DNA from: an uncultured bacterium
Lineage (GTDB): Bacteria > Patescibacteriota > Minisyncoccia > Phycocordibacterales > PALSA-1337
Length of the DNA: 39,225 nucleotides
Assembly: GCA_903837075.1 (NCBI GenBank)
Contig: CAILTI010000029.1
Location: 1 to 39,225, forward strand
Direction: 5' to 3'
The position numbers and the translations under genes were made by a program. Positions within the stretch are counted from its first letter, which is position 1. The number at the start of each line of letters is the position of its first letter. Shown here in pieces: positions 1 to 4,047 of the stretch. The notes below the pieces were generated by a model, which did no database searches, was not told where the DNA came from, and saw only the letters and a program-made list of their open reading frames with translations.

Positions 1-151
1 GTGACCAATATACCAGCGCATTTTCCAAAGGATGAGTGAATCCTTGGAGCGAGTCCTTTGTGAAAATGCTGGTATATTGGGAACAAAGCCGCAGACGATT
101 CAGCAGAATCGTGTCGTCTGGACTCTGAAAAGAGGTGTGAGAGGTTACTTT
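1..151. repeat. Dispersed structured repeat (MITE-like), partial copy cut by the window start
   Basis: 1-94 matches 29373-29466 at 92/94 nt; 131-151 (AGAGGTGTGAGAGGTTACTTT) resembles the right inverted repeat of the 29333-29495 copy. Confidence 0.85.
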
Positions 152-159
152 TATAGCTA

Positions 160-187
160 TTGACTTTTACCTATATTGCGGTATAAT
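160..187 (+). promoter_or_regulatory. Sigma70-type promoter for the DGR target gene
   Basis: TTGACT (160-165), 16-nt spacer, TATAAT (182-187). Confidence 0.65.
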
Positions 188-215
188 ACATGCAGTTCTT
201 TGATATGCTAACTTA

Positions 216-295
216 GTAGGTGATTTTGCAAAATCGCCTACGTTCGCTACAGCATTTAGTGGTCTAGGAGGTAGACTATTGAATGCTGTGGCGAA
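216..295 (+). promoter_or_regulatory. Structured 5' leader of the DGR target gene (two long hairpins)
   Basis: Hairpin 216-241 and a fully paired 24-bp stem 243-266/272-295 (4 G-U pairs) with a GGAGG loop. Confidence 0.6.
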
Positions 296-364
296 GAGTC
301 CAGCGACAAAAATAACCGAGCTTGCCATTTGAGGCTTGCTTAACAATAGAAAGGACACGTTATT

Positions 365-997
365 ATGAATAGCACGTTCACGTTGAGTCAGGGTGCCGGT
401 CAGAAACTGGAATTCGCATTCCAACGAAATGATGGTAATACAGCCGATTTGGAGTGGTTATCGACGGGCGACAACCTCAGGTCAGTCATCCAACTCGCAC
501 GAGGCGAAGCGGATCTGGGTCTCAAGGCTAAACCCGCTCTTGAGCCCGAGCCGGCGATCGACTCGATCATCCGTGTGGATCGTTCGATCCGCCCCACTTA
601 TCCAGACTGGGTGAAGACAGTGATGCATCCTGAATTGGAATCCATTGGCCCAGCTGAGTACGATATCTCACGAGTCGAGCAGTGGCTCCATGACGGCCAG
701 AAGGATGGGAAATGTATCGAAGGTAGCAAGATCTATGCCCATCTCAAGGAGACCTACACACTCAAGACTTGTCTAGGACTGTGTGACCTGAAGGTAATCC
801 AGAATAAAGGCACCGCCTTTTTCCGGGAGCACTTCAAGTACAAAGCAGTCTTCGCGTGGAAAGGGGTCGTGCGGAGCCGCGATGGCGACCTCCGCGCCCC
901 GTACCTCTACGATCTCGGCGACGATGTCGCCCTGTCTTGGTTTTGGCTCGGCAACGGCTGGTTCGACAGTGACCCGGCCCTGCGTCTCGCAAGTTAG
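365..997 (+). CDS. DGR target (variable) protein, 210 aa, C-terminal VR-encoded region, probably C-type-lectin-like fold
   Basis: Last 43 codons match the TR with adenine-specific substitutions; AAGGA upstream of the ATG; fold is inferred from typical DGR targets with a C-terminal VR. Confidence 0.9.
   Translation: MNSTFTLSQGAGQKLEFAFQRNDGNTADLEWLSTGDNLRSVIQLARGEADLGLKAKPALEPEPAIDSIIRVDRSIRPTYPDWVKTVMHPELESIGPAEYDISRVEQWLHDGQKDGKCIEGSKIYAHLKETYTLKTCLGLCDLKVIQNKGTAFFREHFKYKAVFAWKGVVRSRDGDLRAPYLYDLGDDVALSWFWLGNGWFDSDPALRLAS
866..992 (+). repeat. DGR variable repeat (VR), ending in an invariant GC-rich/IMH-like segment (974-992)
   Basis: 127-nt ungapped alignment to 1337-1463; 22 mismatches, 19 at TR adenines. 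Confidence 0.95.
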
Positions 998-1095
998 TAC
1001 TTTGGACTGAGTCACTTTGCACTTTCTGCACTTTGACCTTAGCTCTAAAAATCTGGTGGTATAACCACTCGGCATGGAATGAGCCGCTGACATTC

Positions 1096-1126
1096 AAAAC
1101 CCGAACGATGAGATCGTTCGGGTTTT
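1096..1126. terminator. Perfect 14-bp hairpin downstream of VR (terminator and/or DGR homing cruciform)
   Basis: AAAACCCGAACGAT-GAG-ATCGTTCGGGTTTT. Confidence 0.75.
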
Positions 1127-1140
1127 CTAATATTGAAATA

Positions 1141-1149
1141 TGCTATGAT
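1141..1149 (+). promoter_or_regulatory. Extended -10 promoter candidate for the TR RNA
   Basis: TGcTATGAT; predicted start near 1156 coincides with the first stem of the structured leader. Confidence 0.5.
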
Positions 1150-1155
1150 TATTTG

Positions 1156-1510
1156 CGGTAGTAGGTGAATACGCTGGCGGCCATGTGCTTCCGGCTACCG
1201 AATCCAGTATCCATAAACTGAGAGCGTCTGCGGCCAACCCAGTAGGTCATCCTACTGGATGAGACGCTAAATCAGATTCAATCCTGAGATCGCTAATGGC
1301 TTCGAGGGGTGGTGATATGGATGGTGTTTTGTATGTATCGTGCGGAACCGCAATGGCAACCTCAACGCCCCGTACCTCTACGAGAACGGCGACAATGTCG
1401 TCCTGAACTGGAATTGGCTCGACAACGACTGGAACGACAATAACCCGGCCCTGCGTCTCGCAACTCTCTTCATTTCTCTCCCTTTTACATTTTCGTAGAT
1501 TTGGGAGAGT
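1156..1510 (+). ncRNA. Putative DGR template RNA (structured leader, TR, 3' spacer hairpin)
   Basis: Stems 1156-1161/1195-1200, 1209-1215/1316-1322, 1223-1229/1262-1268, 1239-1246/1251-1258; TR 1337-1463; 3' stem 1476-1482/1503-1509. The 3' end is uncertain. Confidence 0.55.
1337..1463 (+). repeat. DGR template repeat (TR)
   Basis: 12 AAC/AAT codons in the VR frame; differs from VR almost only at adenines; next to Avd-like and RT genes. Confidence 0.95.
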
Positions 1511-1844
1511 TTTGTTTTGTAAGCTGTCCGCTCCAACCGCCGAGATTTTTGCCAATTTCCTCTAATATTAACGAAAGCGCAATGTATCGCTTGTCAATTA
1601 GCGACTTGGTTTCCCACAAGATCATGAGAAGTATTTTCAATGCATCTAGCTTCTTAATAGCCAACCTTACATACGGTTGCTTTTCGGTTGGACCGAGGAA
1701 GCTGGCTGCGGCGATTGCTTCAATGATTTCAACAAATAATGATTCAATCCTGAAACCGATTGAGTGTCTATGCAGTTTCGGTATGTCTTGATAATATGTG
1801 TACCAAAGCAAATATGCATCCTTCACTTTACTCAAAACAGGCAA
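1485..1844 (-). CDS. avd: DGR accessory variability determinant (Avd-like four-helix-bundle protein), about 119 aa
   Basis: Basic helical protein with IPKLHRHSIGFRI and EEIGKNLGGW, typical of the bAvd/four-helix-bundle family. Start uncertain: TTG 1844 gives the usual size, ATG 1916 would overlap RT. Confidence 0.8.
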   Translation of the reverse strand: MPVLSKVKDAYLLWYTYYQDIPKLHRHSIGFRIESLFVEIIEAIAAASFLGPTEKQPYVRLAIKKLDALKILLMILWETKSLIDKRYIALSLILEEIGKNLGGWSGQLTKQNSPKSTKM

Positions 1845-1875
1845 AATTCGTGCGGGGGGGGGTCCGATTAATAGT

Positions 1876-2895
1876 ATGTCTAGAATCCAATTCAACCATA
1901 CATACGATAGTATCATTTCTGTAGAGAATCTGCTCGGAGCATGGAAAGATTTTTTGAAAGGCAAAAAGAAGAGGAAAGATGTGCAGGAATTTGAACGCGA
2001 TCTGATGGCGAACATCATTTCATTACATAACGATCTGCAATCCAAGACCTACAAACATTCAGTGTACGAATTTTTCCGAATATATGACCCAAAACTGAGA
2101 GACATTCATAAAGCTACTGTGCGAGACAGGGTATTGCACCGAGCTGTGTACAGGGAGTTGTACCGATTTTTTGACAAAACATTTATAGCGGATTCATTTT
2201 CATGCCGGATGAGAAAAGGAACACATAAAGCTATTGATAGATTCAGGTCATTTGCTCGCAAGGCATCTCGTAATCATACAATGACAGTATGGGTTCTAAA
2301 ATGTGATATACGAAAATTCTTTGCATCGATTGATCAGAATATTTTGAAGGAGATAGTCAAACTGTATGTATATGACAGATACATCCGTAAATTGCTCTTG
2401 GAAATCACTAATAGTTTTTCGTCTGGTGAAAAAGGTGTCGGTCTTCCACTAGGGAATCTAACGTCTCAACTGTTTGTGAACATTTATATGAATGAATTTG
2501 ACCAATATGTAAAGCATAAGATGAAAGCAAAACACTACATACGTTATGCAGATGATTTTGTCATCATTTCACGAGATAGAGAATGGCTTTGTAATCTCAT
2601 TCCTCAAATTGGTGACTTTCTCTGGTACAGATTGAAGTTACGACTTCATCCTGATAAGGTCTCCATAGGAACTATTGCCGCTGGTGTAGACTATCTTGGC
2701 TGGGTAAGTTTTCCTGATCACCGAATAGTTCGTACATTGACGAAAAAGAGAATGTTTAGAAGACTTAAGGATGTTGATGGTAAAGTTGAGACGGTCCGTT
2801 CGTATCTCGGATTGTTGAAACATGGAAATGCCAAGATGTTACGAGATAAGGTCGAATCAATGAAAACTACCCATAAACGCCGAGACACAGTATAA
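1876..2895 (+). CDS. DGR reverse transcriptase, about 339 aa
   Basis: KCDIRKFFASID, GLPLGNLTSQ (DGR-type GxxxSQ), YIRYADDF, DYLGW; no maturase or endonuclease extension; ATG 1876 preferred over GTG 1798. Confidence 0.95.
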   Translation: MSRIQFNHTYDSIISVENLLGAWKDFLKGKKKRKDVQEFERDLMANIISLHNDLQSKTYKHSVYEFFRIYDPKLRDIHKATVRDRVLHRAVYRELYRFFDKTFIADSFSCRMRKGTHKAIDRFRSFARKASRNHTMTVWVLKCDIRKFFASIDQNILKEIVKLYVYDRYIRKLLLEITNSFSSGEKGVGLPLGNLTSQLFVNIYMNEFDQYVKHKMKAKHYIRYADDFVIISRDREWLCNLIPQIGDFLWYRLKLRLHPDKVSIGTIAAGVDYLGWVSFPDHRIVRTLTKKRMFRRLKDVDGKVETVRSYLGLLKHGNAKMLRDKVESMKTTHKRRDTV

Positions 2896-2904
2896 TTAAC
2901 CCCA

Positions 2905-4047
2905 ATGAAAACACTCAAAGATATCGAATATCTATCTGGCGTAAAGGTGCTCGTGCGCGTTGATTTCAATGTACCTATCAAGAACGGCCTAGTTGCTGAT
3001 GACTTTCGTTTGAAAGCGGCTTTGCCGACGATAGATTTCCTCACAGGTAAAGGTGCCAAGGTGATCTTGATGAGTCATCTAGAGTCTGCAGATGGTACCA
3101 ATCCATCCCTTGCGCCAGTTGCCGACAGACTGAAGAAACTCGGCCGAGAGGTAATATTCATCAAGGATTTCAATAAGGCGCATGAAGTTATCAATGAACA
3201 ATTGAAAGGTGGAGCATGCGCACTGCTAGAAAATTTGCGTTATTTTGATGGTGAAAAGAAAAACGATCCGAAGTTTGCAAGAGAGTTGTCTTCACTCGGA
3301 GATCTATATGTGAACGATGCTTTTTCCGCCTCACATAGAGAGCATGCGTCGATCGTCGGTGTGCCGAGATTGATGCCTAGTTACGCAGGATTACAGATGG
3401 AGAAGGAAGTCACGAGTCTGTCAAAGGCGTTCGATCCAGCACATCCATTCCTATTCATTTTGGGAGGGGCGAAATTCGGCACCAAATTGCCATTGGTAGA
3501 AAAGTTCATGAATATCGCCGATCAGATCTTTGTAGGAGGGGCATTGGCGAACGATCTATTGAAGGCGAAAGGATATAATGTTGGCATGTCGAAGGTTTCT
3601 GAGGAAAAGGATTTCCCAGTTCCCATGTCAGATCTCAGAACTATGGCACAAAATACGAAACTCATATTGCCTATAGATATCATAAACGAGCAGAAAGTCG
3701 CAAAGATGACAGATGCACTATCAGCGAGTGACAAGAATGTCGACATGGGACCGAAAACACTAGAAAATATCAAGGATATAGTTTCCAAGTCTAGATTCGT
3801 TCTCTGGAATGGGCCGATGGGAGTATATGAGTCTGGATTCAAGGAGGGAACTATAGAATTGGCGAAGATAATGAGTGAGGCAACAGCCAGAGGTGTCGAG
3901 ACGATAGTCGGCGGGGCAGATACATTGGCGGCGATCGCTGAGCTCGGCAGTCGAGAGACATTCTCTTTCATTTCTACTGGAGGTGGTGCGATGCTAGATT
4001 TCCTAGCAAAGGGAACTCTACCAGGAATCGAGGCGTTGAAGGATTAG
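2905..4047 (+). CDS. pgk: Phosphoglycerate kinase
   Basis: RVDFNVP, LLENLRY, VNDAFSASHR, LGGAK, WNGPMG, STGGGA motifs. Confidence 0.97.
   Translation: MKTLKDIEYLSGVKVLVRVDFNVPIKNGLVADDFRLKAALPTIDFLTGKGAKVILMSHLESADGTNPSLAPVADRLKKLGREVIFIKDFNKAHEVINEQLKGGACALLENLRYFDGEKKNDPKFARELSSLGDLYVNDAFSASHREHASIVGVPRLMPSYAGLQMEKEVTSLSKAFDPAHPFLFILGGAKFGTKLPLVEKFMNIADQIFVGGALANDLLKAKGYNVGMSKVSEEKDFPVPMSDLRTMAQNTKLILPIDIINEQKVAKMTDALSASDKNVDMGPKTLENIKDIVSKSRFVLWNGPMGVYESGFKEGTIELAKIMSEATARGVETIVGGADTLAAIAELGSRETFSFISTGGGAMLDFLAKGTLPGIEALKD

Follow-up and report, generated by a model that had tools for sequence, protein, structure and literature searches.

A diversity-generating retroelement with a reverse-strand avd

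We analyzed a stretch of 39,225 nucleotides (nt) of DNA from an uncultured member of the Patescibacteria, or candidate phyla radiation (CPR); we will call this whole 39-kb stretch the window. The genome that it comes from is 730 kb in 60 contigs. The first 2.9 kb of the window holds a complete diversity-generating retroelement (DGR), with a template repeat (TR), a variable repeat (VR) within a target gene, the accessory gene avd, and a reverse transcriptase (RT). Its genes and the RNA features discussed below are:

365 to 997, plus strand: target gene, taken from the list of open reading frames (ORFs); 210 amino acids, with the VR at its 3' end
867 to 992, plus strand: VR, a 126-nt direct repeat of the TR
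1141 to 1149, plus strand: extended -10-like element TGnTAnnnT, the putative promoter for the TR RNA
1157 to 1337, plus strand: leader of the TR RNA, shortened compared with the conserved structured leader of the clade
1338 to 1463, plus strand: TR, the 126-nt repeat shared with the VR
1464 to 1475, plus strand: linker after the TR, CUCUCUUCAUUU, conserved in the alignment of relatives
1476 to 1509, plus strand: hairpin with a 7-bp outer stem and a 5-bp inner stem; the avd stop codon is in its loop
1510 to 1518, plus strand: U tract, TTTTGTTTT, after the hairpin
1485 to 1844, minus strand: avd, with the stop codon TAA at 1485-1487; the start is TTG at 1842-1844, or an in-frame ATG at 1916-1914 that is read through the C9 tract
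1854 to 1862: G9/C9 homopolymer, inside the 31-nt gap between avd and the RT gene
1876 to 2895, plus strand: DGR reverse transcriptase, 339 amino acids from the ATG at 1876; the ORF is also open from a GTG at 1798

The TR and the VR are 83% identical over their 126 nt. Eighteen of the 21 mismatches are at TR adenines, which fall at codon positions 1 and 2, and three are at other bases; the stop codon of the target gene lies 5 nt past the end of the VR. Mismatches at template adenines, together with a VR at the 3' end of a coding gene, identify the locus as a DGR. Its type is that of Patescibacteria/CPR, and its genes follow the catalogued order TR-(avd)-RT. Apart from the VR, the genome has no second copy of the TR. 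The RT matches RVT_1 from Pfam (E = 1e-21), and its translation contains the catalytic YADD box as well as LGNLTSQ, an instance of the pattern [I/L]GxxxSQ, which we take to be a mark of DGR reverse transcriptases. We found no family match for the target protein in Pfam or NCBIfam.

At E ≤ 1e-20, a search with the window's RT found 8000 homologs; of the 120 best that were listed, those with a name are from Patescibacteria. Via the RT, we gathered 80 related loci from GTDB genomes (55-71% identity, nearly all labelled Patescibacteria). In 71 of these 80 loci, the RT homolog adjoins a TR/VR pair with adenine-biased mismatches. An Avd homolog is present in 75 of the 80 loci, and in 74 of those 75 it is on the minus strand, directly upstream of and head to head with the RT; the other five loci have no DNA upstream of the RT.

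An initial annotation of this DNA, made from the letters alone, had described the order as target gene with VR (+), TR (+), avd (-) and RT (+), and it left open how widespread an inverted avd might be among CPR DGRs. All of these features are present in the sequence. The same order is found in 70 of the 71 loci with a repeat pair, so it is present in 70 of the 80 Patescibacteria loci, and it also appears in a published catalogue. Nine of the ten loci outside this layout are truncated on the upstream side, and the tenth (L039) has another arrangement. In L039 (1882-2794), the Avd homolog is on the plus strand (1882-2469), and the minus strand, as judged against the RT by which the locus was found, carries the TR (2519-2669) and its leader (2667-2794).

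The catalogue is that of Wu et al. (Nucleic Acids Res 46:11, PMC5758913), whose main text assigns 90% of its CPR DGR set to architecture B3, TR-(avd)-RT. As described there, the B3 DGRs of CPR bacteria have the target upstream and a reverse-strand avd between TR and RT, which is the order and orientation that we find in the window; nothing differs at the level of gene order. The hosts are alike as well, given that the named relatives of the window are Patescibacteria and that its genome is small. A reverse-strand avd is the already-published norm of this lineage and is nothing new in itself. The main-text passages of Wu et al. do not describe a hairpin with a U tract, a structured leader, or a repeat tract between avd and the RT (the supplementary tables may hold more). 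The element in the window probably belongs to DGR clade 2 of Roux et al. 2021 (PMC8144416).

The minus-strand gene

The minus-strand ORF has significant matches to bAvd from Pfam (E = 5e-8; 33.8 bits, with a curated cut-off of 40) and to DivGenRetAVD from NCBIfam (E = 3.8e-14; 52.9 bits, with a curated cut-off of 80), though both scores are below the curated cut-offs. A profile built from 36 Avd homologs had no matches among the sequences in PDB at E ≤ 0.01. The AlphaFold model of the protein, made from the alignment of these homologs (predicted local distance difference test, 93.6), has four helices (residues 2-18, 23-48, 52-78, and 84-112) and a low-confidence tail. When compared with Foldseek, this model resembles Avd from Bordetella phage (4dwl; template modeling scores of 0.83/0.89, root-mean-square deviation of 1.5 Å), and it is also near 2gsc and the Avd chains of the DGR ribonucleoprotein (8ub7/8ubb). 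Together, the profiles and the modeled fold uphold the first identification of this ORF: it is Avd, which is modeled as a four-helix bundle.

As the initial annotation had it, the avd stop is close to the TR end, and avd is head to head with the RT gene: we measured 21 nt (1464-1484) from the end of the TR to the avd stop, and a 31-nt gap from the TTG start to the ATG of the RT. Among the relatives, the avd stop lies a median of 15 nt past the TR end, with extremes of -73 and +61 nt. In two near-identical loci, L058 (3131-3264) and L060 (3132-3265), the avd ORF extends 73 nt into the TR.

A conserved hairpin and U tract follow the template repeat

A stem of CTCTCCC (1476-1482) and GGGAGAG (1503-1509) had been noted to straddle the avd stop codon, and its coordinates are exact. 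To judge from conservation and covariation in the alignments, this stem is part of a plus-strand hairpin that, with the U tract after it, belongs to the TR RNA and not to avd. In the window, the 67 nt from 1464 to 1530 fold at -15.4 kcal/mol (z = -3.3), and 1 of 200 shuffled sequences folds as well.

We looked for stems of 5 bp or more with a T-rich run after them, from 10 nt before to 90 nt after the TR end, in the 71 elements with a repeat pair and in 657 windows placed at random in these loci. On the plus strand, such a hairpin is present near the TR end in 67 of the 71 elements, compared with 3 of 71 for the minus strand and 69 of 657 for the random windows. In the relatives, the hairpin mostly starts 10-15 nt past the TR end, and its longest perfect stem measures 5-14 bp and mostly encloses a loop of 3-6 nt. 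Sequence conservation is seen in the outer stem (CUCCC/GGGAG).

The position of the hairpin is kept relative to the TR, not to avd. The avd stop falls within the hairpin in 43 elements, precedes it in 22, and follows it in 2. Where avd extends over the U tract (assessable in 55 of 71 elements), all three frames are used to read the GGGAG-TTTT motif (30:20:5), giving C-terminal tails such as KQNSP, KTP, or KLP. Since all three reading frames occur, the conserved object is the nucleotide motif.

We also built a covariance model of the hairpin with nine pairs (R1), by supplying the structure and refitting the alignment, and searched 81 sources with it. There were 71 matches, at most one per source, and all of them were on the plus strand at the TR end. 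The match in the window is at 1451-1537 (68.7 bits). On the fitted alignment, 89.2% of the cells can pair, compared with 64.8% when shuffled and 36-73% when the partners are slid, and double-sided changes are seen in 144 cells, compared with 44 ± 6. RNAalifold predicted no pairs on the plain MAFFT alignment, and the hairpin was recovered only after the structure was supplied and the alignment refitted.

In the window, a 7-bp outer stem with 5 GC pairs and a 5-bp inner stem are followed by TTTTGTTTT, which is the architecture of an intrinsic terminator. Because the conserved U tract (UUUUGUUUU) that follows the hairpin is a classical termination signal, we think that the hairpin and U tract most likely terminate the TR RNA near 1515-1520. 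The same genome has a terminator-type hairpin after the target gene (1096-1126). In 68 of the 71 elements, avd has no terminator-like site of its own. With such sites at the avd end on the minus strand in just 3 of 71 elements, avd transcripts may read antisense into the TR, and avd read-through into the TR unit is possible.

The hairpin also has a counterpart in Bordetella phage BPP-1. Passages of a preprint by Handa et al. (10.1101/2023.10.23.563531) report that a stem-loop just downstream of the TR binds Avd, as seen by cryo-electron microscopy. Putative Avd-binding stem-loops are reported there after the TR in 207 of 278 Avd-containing DGRs, including those of CPR; the commonest stem has 9 bp with a tetraloop, and flipped-out bases contact Avd. 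The window's hairpin matches this stem-loop in position and in conservation, and the contact with Avd is putative. The modeled Avd and the stem-loop directly after the TR both resemble BPP-1. We think that the hairpin most likely serves both as an Avd-binding stem-loop and as a terminator.

Other parts of this comparison differ. In the published passages on BPP-1, avd, TR, and brt are co-oriented, whereas avd in the window is inverted. By the same sort of account, about 20 nt upstream of the TR suffice in BPP-1, and 140 nt downstream are needed, which carry the primer, the Thumb Ring, and a stem-loop that binds the RT; in CPR, about 50 nt downstream of the TR are conserved, ending in the U tract.

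Conservation of avd opposite the TR RNA

The initial annotation had proposed that the TR RNA would contain a priming spacer that is antisense to the 3' end of avd, and that synonymous variation might be suppressed there. We examined this with a codon alignment of 75 avd genes, using the frequency of the commonest base at each third position. Third-position conservation is 0.74-0.88 at 1512-1520, which is the U tract, and only there. Across 1521-1845 it is 0.3-0.5 at most avd codons, and the higher values are confined to invariant tryptophan or methionine or to residues with two codons. So, the suppression is found at the U tract and not through 1521-1845, and with such low conservation, nothing indicates that the body of avd has a conserved RNA sequence on its antisense strand. 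A structure kept by covariation alone is possible there. Of the proposed antisense arrangement, a short part stands: the TR RNA would probably overlap avd by about 35 nt. A long priming spacer, such as the 140 nt of Bordetella, is not what we expect, given that 67 of 71 elements have the hairpin and U tract.

A structured leader lies upstream of the template repeat

In the relatives, RNAalifold predicted many covarying helices in the 215 nt before the TR. We modeled the TR-proximal domain of this leader with a covariance model of 130 positions (R2). It matches 72 of the 80 related loci at full length (57-127 bits), always directly upstream of the TR, for example at 3348-3479 of L003. R2 also matches L039, on the strand of that locus's own TR. 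Pairing is seen in 97.1% of the cells, compared with 73.4% when shuffled and 30-51% when slid, and double-sided changes are seen in 395 cells, compared with 100 ± 16. Rfam has no match with E ≤ 1 in the window from 900 to 2000; for a canonical locus (L003, 3000-4100), it gave only three matches, all at chance level. By these alignments and models, the large conserved RNA scaffold of this clade is 5' of the TR. The CPR leader runs about 190-260 nt upstream of the TR, with covariation in the 130 nt adjacent to the TR, while published passages give about 20 nt as the need of BPP-1.

In the relatives, an A-rich segment of the leader, about 115 nt before the TR, is complementary to the 12-nt linker after the TR. 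Compensatory changes between the two are present in many loci, such as L013, L019, L037, L045, L051, L062, and L077. Cognate duplexes of leader and linker have a mean energy of -6.24 kcal/mol, compared with -4.01 kcal/mol for non-cognate duplexes (Wilcoxon p = 7.5e-11, n = 70, with kinship ignored). This duplex resembles the upstream-downstream duplex of BPP-1. Its upstream strand, at about 115 nt before the TR, lies beyond the 40-nt scan that passages of the preprint describe.

The leader's start is marked by the motif AGTAGG. In 20 relatives and the window, TGnTAnnnT is found 17-19 nt before AGTAGG in 15 of the 21 elements, and TAnnnT is found at most 32 nt upstream of it in all 21. We infer that the TGnTAnnnT at 1141-1149 acts as the promoter of the TR RNA.

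The leader in the window is unusual. R2 scores 27 bits (E = 0.023) and matches at model positions 39-130 only, at 1242-1339. Relative to its nearest relatives, the window has an internal deletion after about 1236, which takes out the linker's A-rich partner along with the 5' strand of a 12-bp closing helix. The A-rich partner motif has no match in positions 1-3000 of the window, and the 5'-3' pairing around the TR that is present in the relatives is not found here. The distance from AGTAGG to the TR is 178 nt in the window, compared with 187-264 nt in the 20 relatives. The contig of one relative departs from the window at 1232, into sequence that resembles the canonical leader.

Of the sequencing runs listed as matching the window at 1000-2100, none is of RNA; the four listed are sets of DNA contigs from a single lake-water study, with word shares of 0.23-0.28. 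These contigs are short and of low depth over the locus. Exact pieces at 1158-1355 and 1245-1583 span the leader junction, and they may derive from the samples that the window was assembled from; the tract at 1854-1862 is outside the contigs' coverage.

The RT and avd are intact in the window. The non-adenine mismatches between TR and VR are on the high side, as at least three are seen in just 6 of 72 elements. With its short leader, its lost partner segment, these three mismatches, and altered bases after the G tract (see the next section), the window's copy may be impaired.

A simple repeat lies between avd and the reverse transcriptase

The G9/C9 homopolymer is one of two G/C runs of at least 7 nt in the 39 kb of the window. 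At the same spot between avd and RT, a simple repeat is present in 73 of 75 elements: a G run of at least 6 in 69 of them (mode 9-10, range 6-14), (GT)n in two, and (GA)n in two. The two with a GA repeat instead of a G run are L058 and L060, with 12 and 14 nt. Across 578 kb of related loci, there are 76 G/C runs of at least 7 nt, and only about 9 of these are away from the avd-RT spot.

The length of the tract varies among otherwise identical copies. For this comparison, we added 80 further metagenome loci and grouped copies with 300 nt of 100% identical sequence on each side. Tract length varies in 7 of the 17 groups (for instance 10/11 nt, 14/9 nt, and 12/14 nt for GA), with the caveats that groups with tracts of the same length may be one assembly filed twice and that homopolymer miscalls are possible.

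Simple repeats at promoters or gene starts form contingency loci in other bacteria, such as the poly-G and poly-C tracts of Neisseria and the TA repeats of hifA/hifB in Haemophilus. The tract in CPR DGRs is similar in that a homopolymer or dinucleotide repeat occupies a constant position between divergent genes and differs in length between otherwise identical copies. A contingency locus is defined by a tract that varies in this way and thereby changes expression; the CPR tract, which shows the length variation in the relatives, is a candidate for such a locus. In a limited literature search, we found no paper that describes the avd-RT tract, the U tract, or the upstream leader.

The bases after the tract are also biased. 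In the 69 elements with a G run, T is at +1 in 49/69, A at +2 in 37/69, T at +6 in 44/69, and ATG at +14 in 18/69. The six bases after the tract tend toward TAnnAT in the relatives, and they are TCCGAT in the window. From the G tract to the RT start (1863-1875), the window reads TCCGATTAATAGT; near relatives have the near-palindromic TAnTATTAATAGTA, which resembles back-to-back -10 elements and has the RT's ATG about 7 nt after it. This suggests that the RT mRNA may be leaderless and that the site may be weakened in the window's copy. The tract may act at the RT promoter, at the avd leader, or at the avd start.

Two more specific roles for the tract were considered. One, which we rejected, was a fixed spacing between -35 and -10 elements that spans the G tract: the flank lengths vary, and there is no clear -35 element. 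The other was that the C tract is inside the avd coding sequence. An upstream ATG is open in the core frame in 26 of 73 elements, versus 41 for frame +1 and 28 for frame +2, so the in-frame ATG is not enriched. The excess in frame +1 may stem from the RT's conserved histidine codon, as the window's frame +1 ATG is the complement of that codon. Between the tract and a conserved proline of Avd, there is a TTG or GTG in 35 of the 73 elements.

A model for the CPR template RNA

We propose, with moderate confidence, that the locus is expressed as three transcription units and that the TR RNA forms a unit of its own, with its end near 1515-1520 and a brief overlap with avd. The first unit would be the target gene, with its own promoter-like site and a terminator at 1096-1126. 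The second would be the TR RNA, starting from the element at 1141-1149 and comprising the leader, the TR, the 12-nt linker, and the hairpin with its U tract (1476-1518). The hairpin after the TR would occupy the place of the Avd-binding stem-loop of Bordetella and would also end the RNA. In the relatives, the A-rich segment of the leader would pair with the linker 3' of the TR, closing the TR into a loop; the window's copy, which lost that segment and part of the leader, may be impaired. In the third unit, avd would converge on the TR unit, with its unstructured C-terminal tail and stop codon written over the hairpin, and the RT would diverge from avd across the 31-nt gap with the G9 tract.

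Several points weigh against this model. The end of the TR RNA is predicted from sequence only. The -35 side is weak for both of the proposed promoters. A scan for consensus promoters and terminators called neither these promoters nor the TR hairpin; the scan allows only loops of 3-8 nt, and it missed the window's hairpin, which has a 20-nt outer loop with an inner stem. The RNA of BPP-1 is described, in the passages available, as requiring about 140 nt 3' of the TR, including the priming adenosine, and we identified no primer in the CPR RNA. The alignments behind the covariation counts were fitted to the models, and their sequences are mutually related, not independent. The outer stem is more conserved in sequence than a plain terminator would need, which fits protein binding without necessarily implying termination. 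Finally, termination may be leaky, so that some TR RNA may still run antisense through avd to the RT.

It is possible, but rather unlikely, that the hairpin is only a homolog of the Bordetella Avd-binding stem-loop and does not terminate transcription, with the U tract having some other role in the ribonucleoprotein. The putative stem-loops after the TR in 207 of 278 Avd-containing DGRs, as given in passages of the preprint, and their commonest form of 9 bp with a tetraloop would agree with this, as the stems here have 5-14 bp with loops mostly of 3-6 nt, and as the sequence of the outer stem is conserved. But a GC-rich hairpin with UUUUGUUUU directly after it is what textbooks describe as an intrinsic terminator, a signal of this kind also follows the target gene in this genome (1096-1126), and we see no constraint further 3'. 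Also, binding and termination are compatible with each other, and the proposed TR unit includes both.

Another explanation is that the TR RNA runs antisense through avd, possibly as a single transcript of TR and RT, with the priming spacer lying there, and that avd mRNA pairs with it and gates mutagenesis, as the initial annotation had suggested. All 71 assessable elements have the TR and the RT on one strand, with avd in between, and the 140 nt 3' of the TR in BPP-1 carry, in published passages, the primer and elements that bind the RT. Some overlap of the two RNAs is likely either way, as a minus-strand terminator-like site is found at the avd end in just 3 of 71 elements. Yet a conserved plus-strand hairpin with a U tract lies directly after the TR, the third positions of avd show no nucleotide-level conservation past 1520, the RT is preceded by conserved features of its own, past the G tract, and the RNA that covaries strongly is upstream of the TR. 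Mutual silencing is not an obvious design, either, because cDNA synthesis needs both Avd and the TR RNA. We consider this explanation to be unlikely.

It is very improbable that the hairpin is a terminator for avd or for both directions and that the layout is gene packing with no bearing on the TR RNA: the stop codon is in or beside the hairpin in most elements and CPR genomes are compact, but the T run is on the plus strand only (67/71 vs. 3/71), the hairpin keeps its distance to the TR while the avd stop drifts (-73 to +61 nt), and all three frames are used where avd reads the motif.

Building on the three-unit model, we tentatively suggest a broader scheme, which is doubtful as a whole. The scaffold of CPR DGRs would be permuted relative to Bordetella: the 5' leader (about 190-260 nt) would hold RT and Avd, the duplex of leader and linker would loop the TR, and the terminator would double as the Avd-binding hairpin. 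The G tract (or the GT or GA repeat) would act as a heritable random switch, and avd read-through would act as an antisense brake.

If the template RNA of CPR is indeed self-contained, it would consist of the leader, the TR, the linker, and the terminator hairpin, or about 360 nt here and about 400-450 nt in the relatives. In that case, the rule drawn from Bordetella, with the scaffold trailing the template, would not hold generally, and the most abundant DGR lineage in nature could be reconstituted with a defined minimal RNA. Targeted hypermutation would come under a second layer of stochastic control through a slippery repeat between the genes for the two enzyme components. The window's copy, with its truncated leader and its three non-adenine mismatches, offers a natural contrast to its intact relatives. 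For those who study or engineer DGRs, the interest lies in the RNA anatomy behind the layout.

Target gene region and neighboring gene

Two further features belong to the target gene:

160 to 187: promoter-like site, TTGACT-16-TATAAT, 11 of 12 positions, the best such site of the region
1096 to 1126, plus strand: terminator, a perfect 14-bp hairpin (an inverted repeat that is 100% complementary), then TTTTC

Upstream of the target gene there is also an inverted repeat of 24 nt (243-295).

The spacing between VR and TR is nearly constant among the relatives (median 335 nt), with conserved blocks inside. A block of about 50 nt directly after the target's stop codon (993-1045) is conserved among relatives and holds a direct repeat of CACTTTG. 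This block may be the target-side recognition region for retrohoming.

On the other side of the element, phosphoglycerate kinase (PGK in Pfam, E = 1e-113) is encoded at 2905-4047. It starts 10 nt past the stop codon of the RT, so the element is directly beside a housekeeping gene.

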